From NCBI GenBank assembly GCA_963845175.1, contig CAWJRI010000012.1, positions 13,928 through 77,927 on the forward strand: DNA of 64,000 bases, written 5' to 3'. The position numbers and the translations under genes were made by a program. The notes under the pieces are model-generated. The model was not told the origin of the DNA. It saw only the letters and a program-made list of their open reading frames with translations, and searched no databases. Shown piece after piece: positions 34,831-42,241 of this stretch. This DNA is from an uncultured archaeon. Its GTDB lineage: Archaea; Nanobdellota; Nanobdellia; Woesearchaeales; CAIVOO01. Every line of letters begins with the position of its first letter. Position 1 is the first letter of the stretch.

Positions 34831-34878
34831 TCCAAAACCCGCGAAAAGTATATAAATAAACCCTGCTTGAAGTCATAT

Positions 34879-36369
34879 ATGGAAGCAGAAAAGCTTAAAG
34901 AGCTTGTAAGCTACATTGTTGAAAAAGGGTTTATATGGGGTCCTGAGCCGGAAATATATGGCGGAACAGCAGGATTCTACACCTATGCGCCGCTTGGAAA
35001 ACTGCTTAAAAACAATGTGGAAGGCGCAATAAGAAGCGTTCTGCAGGCAAATGATTTCTGGGAAGTCGAGTGCCCAACTGTAATGAAGAAAGAGGTTTGG
35101 GAGGCGTCCGGACATCTTGGCGGATTCTCAGACCCGATGATTCAGTGCTCGAAATGCGATTCTATTTTCAGGGTCGACACGCTGCTTGAGGAAAATGGAA
35201 TAAAGCCGGACAAAGACCCGCTGAAGCAGGTCATTGAAAGCAAGATTAAATGTCCAGGCTGCAAAGGCAATTTCAAAAATGAAATCAAAAAGCACAGCCT
35301 GATGATGCGCACAATAGTGGGTGTTGACACAGAGGCGTACAACAGGCCTGAAACAGCAACAACAACCTATCTTCCGTTCCAGAGATTTGCTGATTTCTTC
35401 AGGAAGAAAGTTCCATTCGGCGTTTTCCAGATTGGAAAAGCTTACAGGAACGAGATAAGCCCGAGGCAGCATGTGCTGAGATGCCGAGAGTTTACGCAGG
35501 CAGAGGCCCAGCTGTTCATTGGAAAAGAGCAGAAGGATGATTTTGAAAAATATGAGAAAGTGAAAAACGAGAAGCTGCCTCTGTGGCCGCACCAGCTGCA
35601 GGAAAAAGGAAAGCCAAAGATGATAGGTCTGGATGAAGCGCTGAAAAACAAATATTTGAAAAACAAGGCATATGCCTGGTGTTTGTATATTGCCTACAAG
35701 CTTTTTAGGGAGATAGGCATTCCAGAGGAAAAGATAAGACTTAGGCAGCACCATCCCGATGAGAAAGCATTCTATGCCGATGACGCTTGGGACATAGAGA
35801 TAAACCTTAACACATTTGGTTGGTTTGAATGCTGCGGAATCCATGACCGGACAGATTATGACCTGAAGCAGCATGCAAAATTCTCAGGAAAGAAGCTTGA
35901 GATATTCAGCGAGGATTTGAAAAAAAGCATTGTTCCTCATGTGCTTGAAATAGCATTCGGCACAGACAGGCCTGTTTTTGCGCTGCTTGACTTGTTTTAT
36001 GAGAAAAAGGAAAAGGAGGAAGGAAAATCCCTGCTGAAGCTTCCTGCAAATCTTGCGCCAGTCAAAGTCGCTGTATTTCCGCTTGTGAACAAGGATGAAT
36101 TGCTGGCATTGTCAGGCAAAGTTTATGATGAGCTGAGCAAGGAATTTATTGCCATATTTGACAAGTCAGGTGCGATTGGAAGAAGATATCTTAGGCAGGA
36201 TGAAATTGGAACTCCCTTCTGCCTCACTGTTGACTTCGATTCTATCAAGGGAAATGACATAACAATAAGGGAGAGGGACACAGCAAAGCAGAAAAGGGTA
36301 AAAATCAAGGATTTGAGTGAAATTTTGAGAAAATTAATAAATAAAGAAGTAAAATTTGATGTAATATGA
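34879..36369 (+). CDS. glyS: Glycine--tRNA ligase (archaeal/eukaryotic alpha2 type)
   Basis: GFIWGPEPEIYGGTAGFYTYAPLG, FRNEISPR, class II motif 3 region GTDRP. First ATG is 34879. Confidence 0.9.
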   Translation: MEAEKLKELVSYIVEKGFIWGPEPEIYGGTAGFYTYAPLGKLLKNNVEGAIRSVLQANDFWEVECPTVMKKEVWEASGHLGGFSDPMIQCSKCDSIFRVDTLLEENGIKPDKDPLKQVIESKIKCPGCKGNFKNEIKKHSLMMRTIVGVDTEAYNRPETATTTYLPFQRFADFFRKKVPFGVFQIGKAYRNEISPRQHVLRCREFTQAEAQLFIGKEQKDDFEKYEKVKNEKLPLWPHQLQEKGKPKMIGLDEALKNKYLKNKAYAWCLYIAYKLFREIGIPEEKIRLRQHHPDEKAFYADDAWDIEINLNTFGWFECCGIHDRTDYDLKQHAKFSGKKLEIFSEDLKKSIVPHVLEIAFGTDRPVFALLDLFYEKKEKEEGKSLLKLPANLAPVKVAVFPLVNKDELLALSGKVYDELSKEFIAIFDKSGAIGRRYLRQDEIGTPFCLTVDFDSIKGNDITIRERDTAKQKRVKIKDLSEILRKLINKEVKFDVI

Positions 36370-37219: not shown

Positions 37220-37579
37220 ATGATTAAGGATTTAGAAGTCAAGCAGGGAAATGTGGAATTAATTGCAGAAGTTGCTGAAGTGGGCAATATAAGGGAGTTC
37301 AACAAATTCGGAAAATCAGGAAGAGTTGCAACAGCCATTCTGAAGGATGAGACAGGCGAGATAAAACTAAGCCTGTGGAACGAGCAGATAGACAATGTTC
37401 ATGCCGGCGACAAGGTTCACGTTAAAAATGGCTATGTCAGCGAATGGCAGGGAGAGAAGCAGCTGACAACAGGAAGGCTTGGAACAATTGAAGTGACTGA
37501 AAAGGGAAAGAACCCTGAAAAAGCAAAGGAAGAGATAACTGAAGAAATTCCTGAAGCCAAAGAAGAAGAGATAGAATAA
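37220..37579 (+). CDS. Single OB-fold ssDNA-binding protein (SSB/RPA-like) with an acidic C-terminal tail
   Basis: The OB pattern GRVATAILKDETGEIKLSLWNEQ...GDKVHVKNGYVSEWQGEKQL, followed by the tail EEITEEIPEAKEEEIE. Confidence 0.7.
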   Translation: MIKDLEVKQGNVELIAEVAEVGNIREFNKFGKSGRVATAILKDETGEIKLSLWNEQIDNVHAGDKVHVKNGYVSEWQGEKQLTTGRLGTIEVTEKGKNPEKAKEEITEEIPEAKEEEIE

Positions 37580-37685
37580 GGGGCGGTAGCTCAGCCTGGG
37601 ACTTGTCAATGATTTAGCCAGACAAGCAGGAAAGAGCACACGGCTGAAGACCGTGGTGTCGGGGGTTCAAATCCCCCTCGCCCCA
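37580..37685 (+). tRNA. tRNA-Phe: tRNA-Phe (anticodon GAA) with a ~30-32 nt intron in the D-loop
   Basis: Acceptor GGGGCGG/TCGCCCC with discriminator A. D-stem GCTC...GAGC. Anticodon arm CACGG-CTGAAGA-CCGTG. T-arm GGGGG-TTCAAAT-CCCCC. The D-loop region is 41 nt rather than about 9-11 nt and contains the hairpin CTTGTC-N13-GACAAG. Confidence 0.75.
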
Positions 37686-37728
37686 TTTATTTTTCTGCAA
37701 AGCAATAATAATTCATAGTAAATTGTTC

Positions 37729-39975
37729 TTATCCGCCAAGACTGGATTTAAGAATGCTCCCTGCAACAAGGTTGAAGATAATCATAATAGCCAAGGCAAG
37801 AAACACATACATCACTGTTGACCTTGTCAAATTCTGGCCAATCATGTATTCTTCATTCAATTTATCAACCCCGTTTTCTACGCCATTGGCCATAATTGTC
37901 AAGATATAAACTATTTGCACCACATAAATTCCAACGATAATCTGAAAATAAAACGTGGGAATGCCGTCGCCAAAAATATCCATCAAGCCGGCACCTGTCC
38001 CACCGGCAGAAGCTGCTCCGCCTGACTGTATTTTCGTGAGCTGCTCGCCAAGCCTTCCGATTATGGTTGTAATCATTGAGGTTATTCCAATCACAATACC
38101 AGAGATTGCCGGCGTAAGAAAATTTATCTGCGACTTCATGTCTGAGATTACATCAGCCATCAGGTCTTTCAATCTTTCGTCAACCTTATGTATTTCCTTT
38201 ATATAGGTTGAAACATTGATTATTGCCTGGGCTGCTATCATAGGCCCGCGTTTCGAGCTTTCAATAAGAACCTTCATTGAGCTGTCGATGAGATGAGAAG
38301 GATAGTTCAGGATGGCTCCCATCTTCGGATCAAATATTGCCTGCTCTACGCTAAAGCCCAATCTTCTTATATTCATCATCACTGCATTGAAAAAATCGCC
38401 TGAAGTTGTTCCCTCTGTCACGCTTGCAACCTTTTCAAAGGCAATCTCCGCAGGCAGTCCGTCTGCCAGCCTGTTTCCAAGCTGGAAAAGCGCAGAGGCG
38501 AAATCCTGCTCGAGCTTTTTGATATTTTCCCTTATCTGCATCACTGACTTTGACCTTATTTTGTAATAAATTCCTATACTCAGCCCCAGTGCCAAAGGCA
38601 ATGCCAAGCTCGCTATCGCAGCACCAAGACCATAGGGCCCGATTATCAGACCGGGTGTCTTCATCGATTCCCTATATTCAAGAAACTTGAACTGAATGTC
38701 CTTCATTTGCTCAGGTGTTGTGTATTGGTTGATAATCATGACATAGGGTGATTTAAGGGAAAATCCTATGTCCCATTTCGCGTCAGGAATAACTTTGTGA
38801 AGAATAAGTGGAGAAACTGAACAAACAAATAAGACTGCTCCAATAATTATGCTTATCACAAGCGGGGTGAAATTTATTTCAGCGCCAAGAAATTTGAGCC
38901 TGACCTTTTTGTATTTTTTCAGTTCTGGATTCGCCTCTGCAATATCCGCTTCACCATATCCTGTCGGCCTTTTTGAAAGAATGTTCGTTGTTAGGTAATA
39001 AACGCCTACAGGCAGTATTATGTTATAAAGCATTGCCAGCTGATACCAGGTAACGCCTTCCATGAAGCTGACAACAAGCGGCAGGATGACAAGGCCGAGT
39101 ATCGGCAGTATTATTCCAAGCATATGAAGCATTGTTATGGGTGACTTGAGATTTTGGGCGTAATGAAGCATTTTCTCGTATGTTTCCTCAAGAATTACTG
39201 TGAGCGACTTGTCCAGAACCGCAACCCTTCTTTCCTCGGAGCTTTCATACAATGATGATTCTAAAAGATGGAACGACTCTATGAATTCCATGTTCCATTT
39301 TTTCCATGTTTCCAAATAGGATTCAAGCGATTCCTTGACATTCTCATATTTTTCTGTCTCAACATCCCACATAACCTTCTTCAAATCAAGCGAAAGCGGC
39401 GGGGAAAGATGTTCGGATGCAAACTCTATTGCTCTTTCAATATTTGAGGTGTGCCTCATGTAGGTGACAACATAAAAAATACAGAGAACCATTTGGTTGG
39501 ATGCCTTCATTCTCCATTTGTTTGCCATAAAATCTGGAAATTTTGACAATGGAAAAATCAAGACAGCACCTATTATCATAGAAACAAGCATGAAAAACGT
39601 TGATGGGCTTCCGCCTGATACTGAAGGTATTGCGAAGCTGAGAAAAACTGTGACAAGAATGAACGCAACAGGCAGGAAATATGATGCACTCACAACCCCG
39701 GCAGGCGTTATGTTCAAATGGCATATTTTTATGTCCTCTTCAAGCTCCTTCCACCTTTTTTCATCGGGCTTAAGCTTGAGTATCTTTTCAGAAATATTGC
39801 AGAGCTTTTCATAGAATGACATGTGCTTCGGCATGTAAGTTTCCTTGAATTCCTTGTACTCAACAGAAGTTATAGGCCTTGCATTAACAGCCTGGCCGGG
39901 GGAAACTGTGCCTGCCTCTAGCTTTCCCTTATATTTAGAAATTAGTTCCTTTATCTCTTCTTCGGGTATTGGCAT
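37729..39975 (-). CDS. 748-aa polytopic membrane protein, candidate FlaJ/TadC/PilC-like platform protein (divergent)
   Basis: Starts 1 nt after the stop of the secretion ATPase gene. About 9 or more TM segments are separated by two cytoplasmic helical regions. The assignment rests mainly on gene context. Confidence 0.55.
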   Translation of the reverse strand: MPIPEEEIKELISKYKGKLEAGTVSPGQAVNARPITSVEYKEFKETYMPKHMSFYEKLCNISEKILKLKPDEKRWKELEEDIKICHLNITPAGVVSASYFLPVAFILVTVFLSFAIPSVSGGSPSTFFMLVSMIIGAVLIFPLSKFPDFMANKWRMKASNQMVLCIFYVVTYMRHTSNIERAIEFASEHLSPPLSLDLKKVMWDVETEKYENVKESLESYLETWKKWNMEFIESFHLLESSLYESSEERRVAVLDKSLTVILEETYEKMLHYAQNLKSPITMLHMLGIILPILGLVILPLVVSFMEGVTWYQLAMLYNIILPVGVYYLTTNILSKRPTGYGEADIAEANPELKKYKKVRLKFLGAEINFTPLVISIIIGAVLFVCSVSPLILHKVIPDAKWDIGFSLKSPYVMIINQYTTPEQMKDIQFKFLEYRESMKTPGLIIGPYGLGAAIASLALPLALGLSIGIYYKIRSKSVMQIRENIKKLEQDFASALFQLGNRLADGLPAEIAFEKVASVTEGTTSGDFFNAVMMNIRRLGFSVEQAIFDPKMGAILNYPSHLIDSSMKVLIESSKRGPMIAAQAIINVSTYIKEIHKVDERLKDLMADVISDMKSQINFLTPAISGIVIGITSMITTIIGRLGEQLTKIQSGGAASAGGTGAGLMDIFGDGIPTFYFQIIVGIYVVQIVYILTIMANGVENGVDKLNEEYMIGQNLTRSTVMYVFLALAIMIIFNLVAGSILKSSLGG

Positions 39976-39976
39976 T

Positions 39977-42241
39977 TTATTTCATCTGATACTTTTTTGC
40001 GGCTGCTTTCAGCCATTCATTAAATTCAAAGAAAATTCTTTTTGGGTCCAATGCGCCAAATTCTTCCCTCACTGTCTCTGAAATCTTGTGGAACTGGTCG
40101 TTACATAATACTACAAAATCAGCTTCCAGAAGCTCTGGCCTCTTTGCTGCATCTGAAATATCAACGATTGCCTTCTTGATATCCGCCCTCAACTGAACGT
40201 TTTCCCAGACAGCATCCCAGTTGCCTGCCCATTCCTTAACATTTCCTGCTATCGCTTTCAGTATGTCTGAATCGCCGTTTATCAAGTCATTGGAGCATTC
40301 AAGCTGGTCATGTTTTGATTCATATTTCATCAAATCGACAAATCCATGCTCGAGCAGCGGATCCTCCTCCCATTGCTTCCTTACCTCTGTAATGGAAGTG
40401 ACGCGCCTCCACCTGTGCATTCCGTCGGGGGATTTTATCGGGTTTGCAACAACAATTATGTCTGTTGCCTTGAATGATGTTTTTGGCACTTGCAAATCAT
40501 TTACAACCCTGTCATAAACTCCATAGGGGGAATCGCCATGGATTGTTCCTGCAACAACATTTGCAAGTGCGCCAACCCTCATTGCCTCGTAAAGCGCCCT
40601 TGCCTCTGTGCTCCTTACTTCACCAACAATCAGGGCAGAATCTCCCAGGCGCAGCGTCGTTCTTATGCCTTCATCTGCAGGTACTTCTGTTGTTCCTTTT
40701 GACATTGCGCTTGCAACCTTCATCTGCTGTATGTTGTATCCAAGATTCATTAAAGATCTTACAGGCAGTTCAAGCGTATCCTCGATTGTTATCATCCTGT
40801 AAGTTCTCATAACCTCAACCATTAAAGAGGCGAGAAGGGATGTTTTTCCTGCGCTTCTTGTCCCTGCAACCAGCAATGTCCTGTTTCCATCAATTATGAA
40901 GCTAAGAAGCCCTGCCGCAAGCGGGTTTAACATTCCCTGTTTTATGAAAAGCGGAAGTGTCCATGGCTTGTCCCTGTGCCTTCTGAATGCAAACGCAAGC
41001 CCTGTTGGATCAAGCGGCGGAGCAATAACACCTACCCTTGCCCTCGATCCAGGTATTTCTATTTCTGTATCTAAAATAGGATTTGCCTCGTCAAGCGGTC
41101 TGCCTGAAATCATCCTCAGCTTCGAGGCCCAGGACTCTGCCTCTGACCTTGTTATTATTGCATTTGTCCTGCAGTTGTCGAAATCCGCATGAACTATGAA
41201 CATCGGCGACTGGCCGGGCGGGCTGTTGATTGTTATGTCCTGTATTTTTTCATCCTGAAGAAGCACTTCAACAAGCCCGAAGCCGACAGTGTACCTGATT
41301 AATATTTCTGACAGCTCCACAATCTCGTCTTCTGTCAGAGTCATATTTCTGTATTTTGCAAGCTCCTCTATCAAATCCTTTCCGACGTTGAAGAAAACCT
41401 GCCTCATCCTATCAGGCTGCGTGAATTCCTCTGCCGTCGGCTTGTGCTCAGCCATTATTTTTCTTGCGGCATCCAAAACTTCATATTTTTCCTCTGAAAG
41501 CTTGAATTCAGGCGGCAGCATGTGATAAAGTGTATGGACTGTGTCAGGAAGTGTGAAGGCAGTTATTTCAGTGCCCTTTACCGTGTAGCTTGCAATCTCC
41601 TCTCCGCCAATCGGGTATGTTGCCATCAGCTTCGTAAACATGAAGTCCGGCTTTATCGCTGGCCTGAAAATTTTCTTGTAAACAGAGCGGTCAAGTTCGT
41701 AGCCGGCAAGATAGGGCTTGGCGATTGTAACCAACCTTGTTTTTTCCAAAAGAGAAAGTAAATATGTAATCAGTGAAAGGTATCTTTGCTGTCCCTGGAT
41801 TTCGGCATCTACGGTGTACTGCTCAAGTTTTATCCTTTCAGTTCTGAGAAGCCTTTTAAGTTCAACATAGCAACCCAGCGGATCTGAAGTGAGCAGCTGG
41901 AAAATTATTCTTTGGATATCATTGTATCTCTGCTCCTGGTCTCTTTTAAATGTCCCGCCAAAGCTCAGCGCCTCCAGGTTGAAAATATCCTTTTGCTTCA
42001 AAAGCCTATTGTATAGAAATGCAATCTCATTGAGAAGCTGGACCTGGTCAAACTCATATTCATAATCTCTTTTTTGGTAGAATATAACCTTTGTAACATT
42101 GCCGACTTCTGCAAGCTTGGCAATTGTCATTGACATGCAGTTTGGGTCGTCTTCAAGGGATGGCACCCTTAAATACTTTTCATAGTCTATTTTTAGTGTG
42201 ACTTCCCCGCCTTCCCTTGTTACATCATAATCGCCAGGCAC
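39977..42241 (-). CDS. Type II/IV secretion-family ATPase (FlaI/PilB/VirB11-like) with long N- and C-terminal extensions (754 aa)
   Basis: Walker A VAGTRSAGKTSLL, ITIEDTLEL (Asp box), ALIVGEVRSTEA (Walker B), AGTIHGDSP (His box). GTG start. Confidence 0.85.
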   Translation of the reverse strand: MPGDYDVTREGGEVTLKIDYEKYLRVPSLEDDPNCMSMTIAKLAEVGNVTKVIFYQKRDYEYEFDQVQLLNEIAFLYNRLLKQKDIFNLEALSFGGTFKRDQEQRYNDIQRIIFQLLTSDPLGCYVELKRLLRTERIKLEQYTVDAEIQGQQRYLSLITYLLSLLEKTRLVTIAKPYLAGYELDRSVYKKIFRPAIKPDFMFTKLMATYPIGGEEIASYTVKGTEITAFTLPDTVHTLYHMLPPEFKLSEEKYEVLDAARKIMAEHKPTAEEFTQPDRMRQVFFNVGKDLIEELAKYRNMTLTEDEIVELSEILIRYTVGFGLVEVLLQDEKIQDITINSPPGQSPMFIVHADFDNCRTNAIITRSEAESWASKLRMISGRPLDEANPILDTEIEIPGSRARVGVIAPPLDPTGLAFAFRRHRDKPWTLPLFIKQGMLNPLAAGLLSFIIDGNRTLLVAGTRSAGKTSLLASLMVEVMRTYRMITIEDTLELPVRSLMNLGYNIQQMKVASAMSKGTTEVPADEGIRTTLRLGDSALIVGEVRSTEARALYEAMRVGALANVVAGTIHGDSPYGVYDRVVNDLQVPKTSFKATDIIVVANPIKSPDGMHRWRRVTSITEVRKQWEEDPLLEHGFVDLMKYESKHDQLECSNDLINGDSDILKAIAGNVKEWAGNWDAVWENVQLRADIKKAIVDISDAAKRPELLEADFVVLCNDQFHKISETVREEFGALDPKRIFFEFNEWLKAAAKKYQMK

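Follow-up and report, generated by a model that had tools for sequence, protein, structure and literature searches.

A tRNA-Phe gene with a predicted protein-spliced D-loop intron in an archaeon of the Woesearchaeales

Genes and features of the locus

The DNA analysed in the present study, a stretch of 64,000 nt (the window), belongs to a metagenome-assembled genome (MAG; hereafter G000) of the Woesearchaeales (DPANN), which comprises 687 kb in 20 contigs and is approximately 65% complete. Between positions 34867 and 37685 of the plus strand, a class II aaRS gene of 500 aa with an HGTP_anticodon domain (34867-36369), a 276-aa ORF with no Pfam match, an OB-fold SSB gene and a tRNA-Phe gene follow one another head to tail, overlapping or separated by at most 23 nt, and this stretch looks like one transcription unit ending in the tRNA (Table 1). 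The SSB ORF ends at 37579 and nucleotide 1 of the tRNA is 37580, in agreement with the preliminary description of this DNA, which had placed the tRNA right after the SSB stop codon. The T-rich tract behind the discriminator is a probable archaeal terminator. Immediately downstream of the tRNA, a 748-aa ORF with no Pfam match lies on the opposite strand (37729-39975, minus), and the gene next to it encodes a 754-aa T2SSE-type secretion ATPase (39977-42241). The gene for the RNA ligase RtcB is found 7.5 kb downstream of the tRNA, as previously noted; this distance is no evidence of linkage.

The 106 nt at 37580-37685 contain every arm of a tRNA-Phe(GAA), as originally described. In order, these nucleotides comprise the acceptor strand GGGGCGG, UA, the D-stem strand GCUC (GCTC in the DNA), 41 nt, the second D-stem strand GAGC, A, the anticodon arm CACGG-CUGAAGA-CCGUG, the variable loop GUGUC, the T arm GGGGG-UUCAAAU-CCCCC, the acceptor strand UCGCCCC (TCGCCCC in the DNA; the stem includes a G7-U66 wobble) and the discriminator A. 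CCA is not encoded. The 41 nt between the D-stem strands contain the inverted repeat CTTGTC-N13-GACAAG, also seen earlier. In the ARAGORN drawing of the spliced sequence, GAA stands in a 7-nt loop of a cloverleaf with A73 and with G20 in the D-loop, and this spliced sequence is 94-100% identical to the intronless tRNA-Phe genes of relatives.

Table 1. Features of the tRNA-Phe locus, its predicted intron, the splicing enzymes and other intron-bearing tRNA genes of G000
Feature	Position	Strand	Basis or remark
OB-fold SSB gene, 119 aa	37220..37579	+	TAA 37577-37579; Pfam Ssb-like_OB, E 3.9e-9
tRNA-Phe 5' exon, nt 1-21 (acceptor 5' strand, U8 A9, D-stem GCTC, D-loop AGCCUGGG up to G20)	37580..37600	+	ARAGORN on spliced sequence; 100% match to intronless G001 gene
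Central helix, exon strand CCUG, D-loop 16-18	37595..37598	+	pairs with 37627-37630; MFE and centroid fold
5' splice-site bulge GGA	37599..37601	+	fold; predicted cut after 37600
Predicted 32-nt intron ACTTGTCAATGATTTAGCCAGACAAGCAGGAA, tRNA position 20/21	37601..37632	+	BHB cleavage rule on MFE fold; independent BHB scan
Intron hairpin, 6-bp helix CUUGUC/GACAAG, 13-nt loop	37602..37626	+	fold
Central 4-bp helix, intron strand CAGG	37627..37630	+	fold
3' splice-site bulge AAA	37631..37633	+	fold; predicted cut after 37632
tRNA-Phe 3' exon (A21, D-stem 3' strand, anticodon arm with GAA, variable loop, T arm, acceptor 3' strand, A73)	37633..37685	+	
T-rich tract TTTATTTTT	37686..37694	+	directly after discriminator
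RtcB RNA ligase gene, 505 aa	45110..46627	+	Pfam RtcB, E 3.5e-171, 570 bits; expected exon-joining enzyme
EndA gene, 174 aa	L031 1264-1788 (G000:C14)		PF01974 (102 bits) and PF02778
tRNA-Asn(GUU), 22-nt intron at 15/16	C19:7184-7279	-	BHB scan
tRNA-Glu(UUC), 49-nt D-loop intron	C13:8092-8215	-	BHB scan
tRNA-Cys(GCA), 23-nt intron at about 8/9 (after nt 8) and 37-nt anticodon-region intron	C7:12615-12747	+	BHB scan
Multi-intron tRNA gene, Val or Ala	C18:2310-2448	+	

The intact locus escapes the standard finders. ARAGORN (default and -i) called no tRNA on the unspliced locus and no gene within the 64-kb window, Rfam at the gathering threshold gave no tRNA match anywhere in the window, and an Rfam E-value scan of the locus returned T-arm fragments only. 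The spliced form, on the other hand, is accepted by ARAGORN. A whole-genome search with the Rfam tRNA model gave a partial, sub-threshold match of 25 bits (C12:51542-51604), and the assembly yielded no further match to tRNA-Phe. The same holds beyond this gene: ARAGORN found 11 tRNAs in G000 without intron handling and 22 with it. The BHB scan added further intron-bearing tRNA genes of G000, namely tRNA-Glu (D-loop), tRNA-Asn (15/16) and tRNA-Cys (about 8/9 and the anticodon region). Many expected tRNAs were not detected in this incomplete assembly. Standard finders thus miss an essential tRNA-Phe and many other tRNAs of G000, and since intron-bearing tRNAs are overlooked in this way, DPANN genomes can seem to lack tRNAs that are actually present.

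The bulge-helix-bulge and the boundaries of the insert

The full 106 nt fold with RNAfold at -45.9 kcal/mol (z = -2.9; 1 of 200 shuffled sequences was equally good), and the MFE structure equals the centroid. The fold consists of the cloverleaf together with the 6-bp helix, the GGA bulge, the 4-bp CCUG/CAGG helix and the AAA bulge, that is, two 3-nt bulges on opposite strands with a 4-bp helix between them and the splice sites inside the bulges. This 3-4-3 geometry is in the correct strand register, with the order of 5' helix strand, bulge and flanking helix on both strands. Under the bulge-helix-bulge (BHB) rule, cleavage takes place after the second nucleotide of the bulge. Applied to both bulges, this rule places the predicted cuts at 37600|37601 and 37632|37633 and thus delimits an intron of 32 nt that separates G20 from A21. 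In the preliminary description, a strict BHB could not be folded by eye and the splice sites were regarded as uncertain, a view that no longer holds because a canonical 3-4-3 BHB folds. As for a strict motif, the 3-4-3 core is present but the strict hBHBh' form is not: A14 and G15 (37593-37594) are unpaired opposite the 3' bulge and part it from the D stem. The resulting 2x3 internal loop makes the motif a relaxed, HBh'-like form. The relaxation is confined to the outer side of the motif; on the inner side, the 5' bulge is directly followed by the 6-bp helix. In the folded tRNA body, A14 and G15 normally form the tertiary pairs U8-A14 and G15-C48.

Excision of 37601-37632 yields a 74-nt tRNA-Phe(GAA) with the D-loop AGCCUGGGA, as called by ARAGORN, consistent with the earlier estimate that the removal of some 30-32 nt would restore the D-loop. 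A brute-force BHB scan of the 687-kb genome, in which ARAGORN was run on each spliced candidate, independently recovered exactly this intron.

Other identities of the insert were rejected. A box C/D guide RNA sits in the euryarchaeal tRNA-Trp intron, with RUGAUGA as the C box and CUGA as the D box; the present 32 nt are too short for such a guide and contain only AUGAUU, with no CUGA D box. The size of the insert and its BHB register speak against a group I intron or a mobile-element insert, and both were rejected. A blastn-short search for a copy of the intron elsewhere in the genome gave chance 9-12-mers only, and nothing was found in favour of intragenomic transposition as the origin of the intron.

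Relatives with and without the intron

The sharpest comparison comes from a genome of the same genus, G001, whose tRNA-Phe gene is intronless: nt 1-22 and nt 54-101 of the query align side by side with 100% identity, and the overlap in this alignment is a single ambiguous A (A22 or A54). In two further relatives (G003 and G010), the intron is also absent and the junction falls at the exact predicted place; most relatives carry an intronless tRNA-Phe with the D-loop AG(C/A)CUGGGA. At the sequence level, the intronless gene of the same genus confirms the predicted junction and the boundaries of the insert. G000 and G001 do not differ at any of the 69 comparable exon bases, whereas their SSB genes share 82% and the upstream kilobase 78% identity, a pattern that would indicate selection on the exons. 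The absence of the insert from so close a relative, and the assembly of the MAG in 20 contigs, might be taken to mean that the insert is an artefact of assembly or binning, such as a chimeric join or a mis-assembled repeat. We regard this as extremely improbable, as the insert lies inside a 98-kb contig, no other copy was found in the genome by blastn-short, and the BHB architecture is common to independent assemblies from other studies.

The same D-loop site is used elsewhere in the order. The D-loop motif GCTCAGCCTGG-N-CAGGNNAGAGC was found by pattern search in 16 of 401 Woesearchaeales genomes, distributed over 15 genera (control matches, 0), in tRNA-Phe (10), tRNA-Lys (5) and tRNA-Ala (1) genes; one further tRNA-Phe gene with a 20/21 intron, L051, came from the set of SSB loci. 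All 16 matches in the order contain CAGG, as the search pattern demanded, and the other two helices carry no covariation information because they were fixed by the pattern. The intron-internal helix beside the bulge, in contrast, covaries in 17 related D-loop introns: its sequence differs and its pairing is kept. All four pairs of this inner helix show changes on both sides, and compensatory cells number 20, compared with 6.0 +/- 2.2 in shuffles (0 of 500 shuffles). The whole structure pairs at 93.6% (27-42% in slid controls), and a separate count gave a mean of 3.9 consecutive base pairs against 0.68 in shuffled sequences. These results suggest that the 20/21 type of D-loop intron is common in the Woesearchaeales.

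These comparisons also bear on the possibility that the locus is a disabled or decaying copy of tRNA-Phe, whose insert is never removed, with a working gene in the unassembled third of the genome. Since the genome is only about 65% complete, a second tRNA-Phe gene could indeed be unassembled, as could a second endonuclease subunit, and both the rejection of the locus by standard finders and the lack of strictness on the outer side of the BHB would fit a decaying gene. A decaying copy is nevertheless very improbable, given that the position of the insert matches the BHB register exactly and its removal leaves a perfect cloverleaf, that the exons are identical to an intact congeneric gene although neighbouring DNA has diverged to 78-82%, that the assembly holds no second match, and that the same kind of insert occurs at the same site in at least 10 other genomes with compensatory changes in the helix.

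The D-loop 20/21 pattern was found in none of the six other members of the family of G000. Because G000 alone within the family has the 20/21 intron, a recent gain in its lineage is more parsimonious than several precise losses. The pair of G000 and G001, with identical exons with and without the intron, therefore offers a clean natural example of the recent gain or loss of an archaeal tRNA intron. In a rough spliced alignment of approximately 65 tRNA-Phe genes, about 26 are intronless, and the others carry introns near 4/5, 18/19, 20/21, 27-31, 37/38, 45-47 and 59-61; these positions are approximate, with a possible error of a few nucleotides at the boundaries, and loci with low scores cannot be relied upon. 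Intron positions in tRNA-Phe vary even among the genera of this family.

Two kinds of unusual tRNA-Phe introns were observed elsewhere in the Woesearchaeales. First, the genes at L116 (G254:C155, about 965-1230) and L120 (G076:C112) apparently contain up to six introns. At L116, the gene spans 264 nt, and excision of segments of 30, 33, 24, 48, 26 and 29 nt, at sites near 4/5, 20/21, about 28/29, about 38/39, 45/46 and 60/61, leaves a 74-nt tRNA-Phe that ARAGORN accepts; a perfect central helix of 4 bp with 3-nt bulges is seen at four of the junctions, and the other two are relaxed. Because not every junction is strict, a combinatorial strict-BHB search left both L116 and L120 without a complete solution, and the introns were parsed manually. 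To our knowledge, the published maximum in Archaea is three introns per tRNA gene, a number that the putative six introns of these genes appear to exceed. Second, the anticodon-loop introns of tRNA-Phe at L112, L113, L115, L019 and L053 are 36-54 nt long and carry UGAUGA and CUGA or GAUGA around a short hairpin (for example, GAUCUGAUGAGGC...CAAUGA...CAGAG). In this they are similar to box C/D or k-turn elements, and a guide-RNA-like nature is possible.

Processing of the transcript and comparison with known systems

Both enzymes expected for splicing, the endonuclease EndA and the ligase RtcB, are encoded in G000. The best solved relatives of the EndA are the alpha4 EndA of M. jannaschii (1a79) and the alpha subunit of N. 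equitans. It aligns without gaps to 1a79 over residues 3-174 and shows a 6-residue gap opposite the KKGKRSER loop of N. equitans (basic loop 90-98), which is the Nanoarchaea/ARMAN-2 loop, L3 (PMC3488258, PMC5829648). No specificity loop insertion (CSL/L1, ASL/L2 or the N. equitans loop 90-98, L3) was seen in the alignment, and phmmer --max against all ORFs of the approximately 65% complete assembly found no paralogue that could serve as a second (beta) subunit or as a fused multi-unit EndA. In 39 of 41 relatives, closed genomes included, a single EndA match exceeds the cut-off, in open frames of mostly 175-250 aa. Because it is gapless to the M. jannaschii enzyme, lacks the L3 loop and has no paralogue, the EndA of G000 looks like the plain alpha4 type, with the oligomeric state deduced from these features. 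The cleavage of relaxed motifs has been tied to specificity loops of EndA (PMC5829648, PMC3488258). A relaxed motif together with an EndA without the N. equitans loop therefore counts against the explanation preferred here, and a loop-less EndA in an intron-rich genome and order would be at odds with a requirement for specificity loops or heteromers. An intron-rich lineage with a plain endonuclease of the alpha4-like type thus provides a direct test of what sets the substrate range of EndA.

From the observed fold, the exact boundaries of the insert, the presence of the splicing enzymes and the comparative pattern, we conclude, with a probability of roughly 0.88, that 37580-37685 (plus strand) is a functional tRNA-Phe(GAA) gene of a Woesearchaeales archaeon in which an archaeal intron of 32 nt, of the protein-spliced type, lies between G20 and A21, and we infer that this intron is actually spliced.

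How the tRNA is transcribed is a separate question. In 15 of the 22 tRNA genes of G000, a TTTATAAA/TTTAAATA-type box is present at about -35 to -25, and no TATA box was found within 60 nt upstream of tRNA-Phe. As the tRNA abuts the SSB stop codon without a TATA box, co-transcription with SSB and release of the 5' end by RNase P, which the preliminary description had taken to be implied, is plausible and is the best inference. The gene order SSB, tRNA-Phe is widely shared among relatives, and in G001 the tRNA also stands directly after the SSB TAA (zero spacer). The G001 SSB gene itself (L037 1500-1861, CAIMOB010000060.1) is interrupted near codon 100 by an in-frame stop, and the acidic tail is then read in a different frame, owing to either a frameshift or an error of assembly; the final TAA still abuts the tRNA. 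Alternatively, the intron could be real and spliced, and the tRNA transcribed independently from an unrecognised promoter of its own within the SSB coding sequence. In favour of this, promoters in archaea may be degenerate, and five other tRNA genes of G000 also have no obvious TATA box. We nevertheless consider independent transcription unlikely, in view of the lack of a TTTAWATA-type A/T-rich octamer within the upstream 60 nt (the best candidate is AAGAAATT), the conservation of the zero-spacer arrangement in G001, the presence of a spacer with a clear TTTATAAA box in more distant relatives, and the archaeal RNase P RNA of G000 (160 bits), available for the processing of a long leader.

Herein, we propose the following pathway for the maturation of this tRNA. 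The gene would probably be transcribed as the tail of the SSB transcript, since it lacks a recognisable promoter and its first base directly follows the SSB stop codon; RNase P would free the 5' end. In the precursor, D-loop nucleotides C16-G18 (CCUG) would pair with CAGG of the intron to form the 4-bp central helix of the BHB, with the splice sites carried by the 3-nt bulges GGA and AAA. The single 174-aa EndA would then cut after the second nucleotide of each bulge, RtcB would join the exons into the 74-nt tRNA with the restored D-loop, and CCA would be added thereafter.

Taken together with the survey of the order, these observations allow a broader and tentative reading, to which we give somewhat short of an even chance, namely that the Woesearchaeales are a second hot spot, as yet unexplored, for the fragmentation of tRNA genes and depart jointly in three respects from the published picture. 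First, an insert-less, M. jannaschii-like alpha4 EndA may process many non-canonical and partly relaxed BHB introns. Second, turnover may be fast, with 20/21 as a recurrent insertion site in tRNAs that share a GCUCAGCCUGG D-arm, and the pair of G000 and G001 may capture a recent gain. Third, single tRNA genes may contain up to six introns. If true, this reading would challenge the need for specificity loops or a heteromeric EndA.

Several elements of the present findings have precedents. Position 20/21 is a listed non-canonical position of archaeal tRNA introns (PMC4090602), and alpha4-type EndAs and increased tRNA disruption have been described in DPANN, including Woesearchaeota RBG_13_36_6 (PMC5829648). 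Introns at 20/21 and in the D-loop, as well as tRNA disruption in DPANN, are thus already published, and the present intron is an expected kind of feature. Three systems are close enough for comparison. The first is the pre-tRNA-Glu(UUC) of Methanopyrus kandleri, whose relaxed HBh' D-loop intron at 20b/21 has been studied in vitro (Kaneta et al. 2018, PMC5829648). In both cases, a protein-spliced D-loop intron lies just before A21 and the BHB is relaxed on one side. The M. kandleri intron is removed by EndA, as predicted for the present one, and the mature tRNA-Glu has been seen by RNA-seq (PMC5829648). The two differ in the tRNA (Phe instead of Glu), in the phylum, in the EndA, which is (alpha-beta)2 in M. 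kandleri compared with the single alpha4-like subunit here, and in the additional canonical intron of the M. kandleri gene, as the present tRNA-Phe has the D-loop intron only. The second system is that of the Thermoproteales (Sugahara 2008; Fujishima 2010; cited in PMC4090602 and PMC4033280). There, the introns are likewise defined by BHBs and occupy many positions including 20/21, with rapid turnover between close relatives and use of the same site in different tRNAs; unlike here, the EndA is (alpha-beta)2 with a Crenarchaea-specific loop, and different tRNAs share similar intron sequences, whereas G000 has no second copy of its intron. The third is that of the disrupted tRNA genes of DPANN (Kaneta 2018), from the same superphylum and phylum. 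The alpha4 enzymes of that survey were associated with the L3 loop, an insertion that the EndA of G000 does not have; the survey genomes and G000 share a single-subunit EndA, many non-canonical introns and tRNA sets that standard tools predict incompletely.
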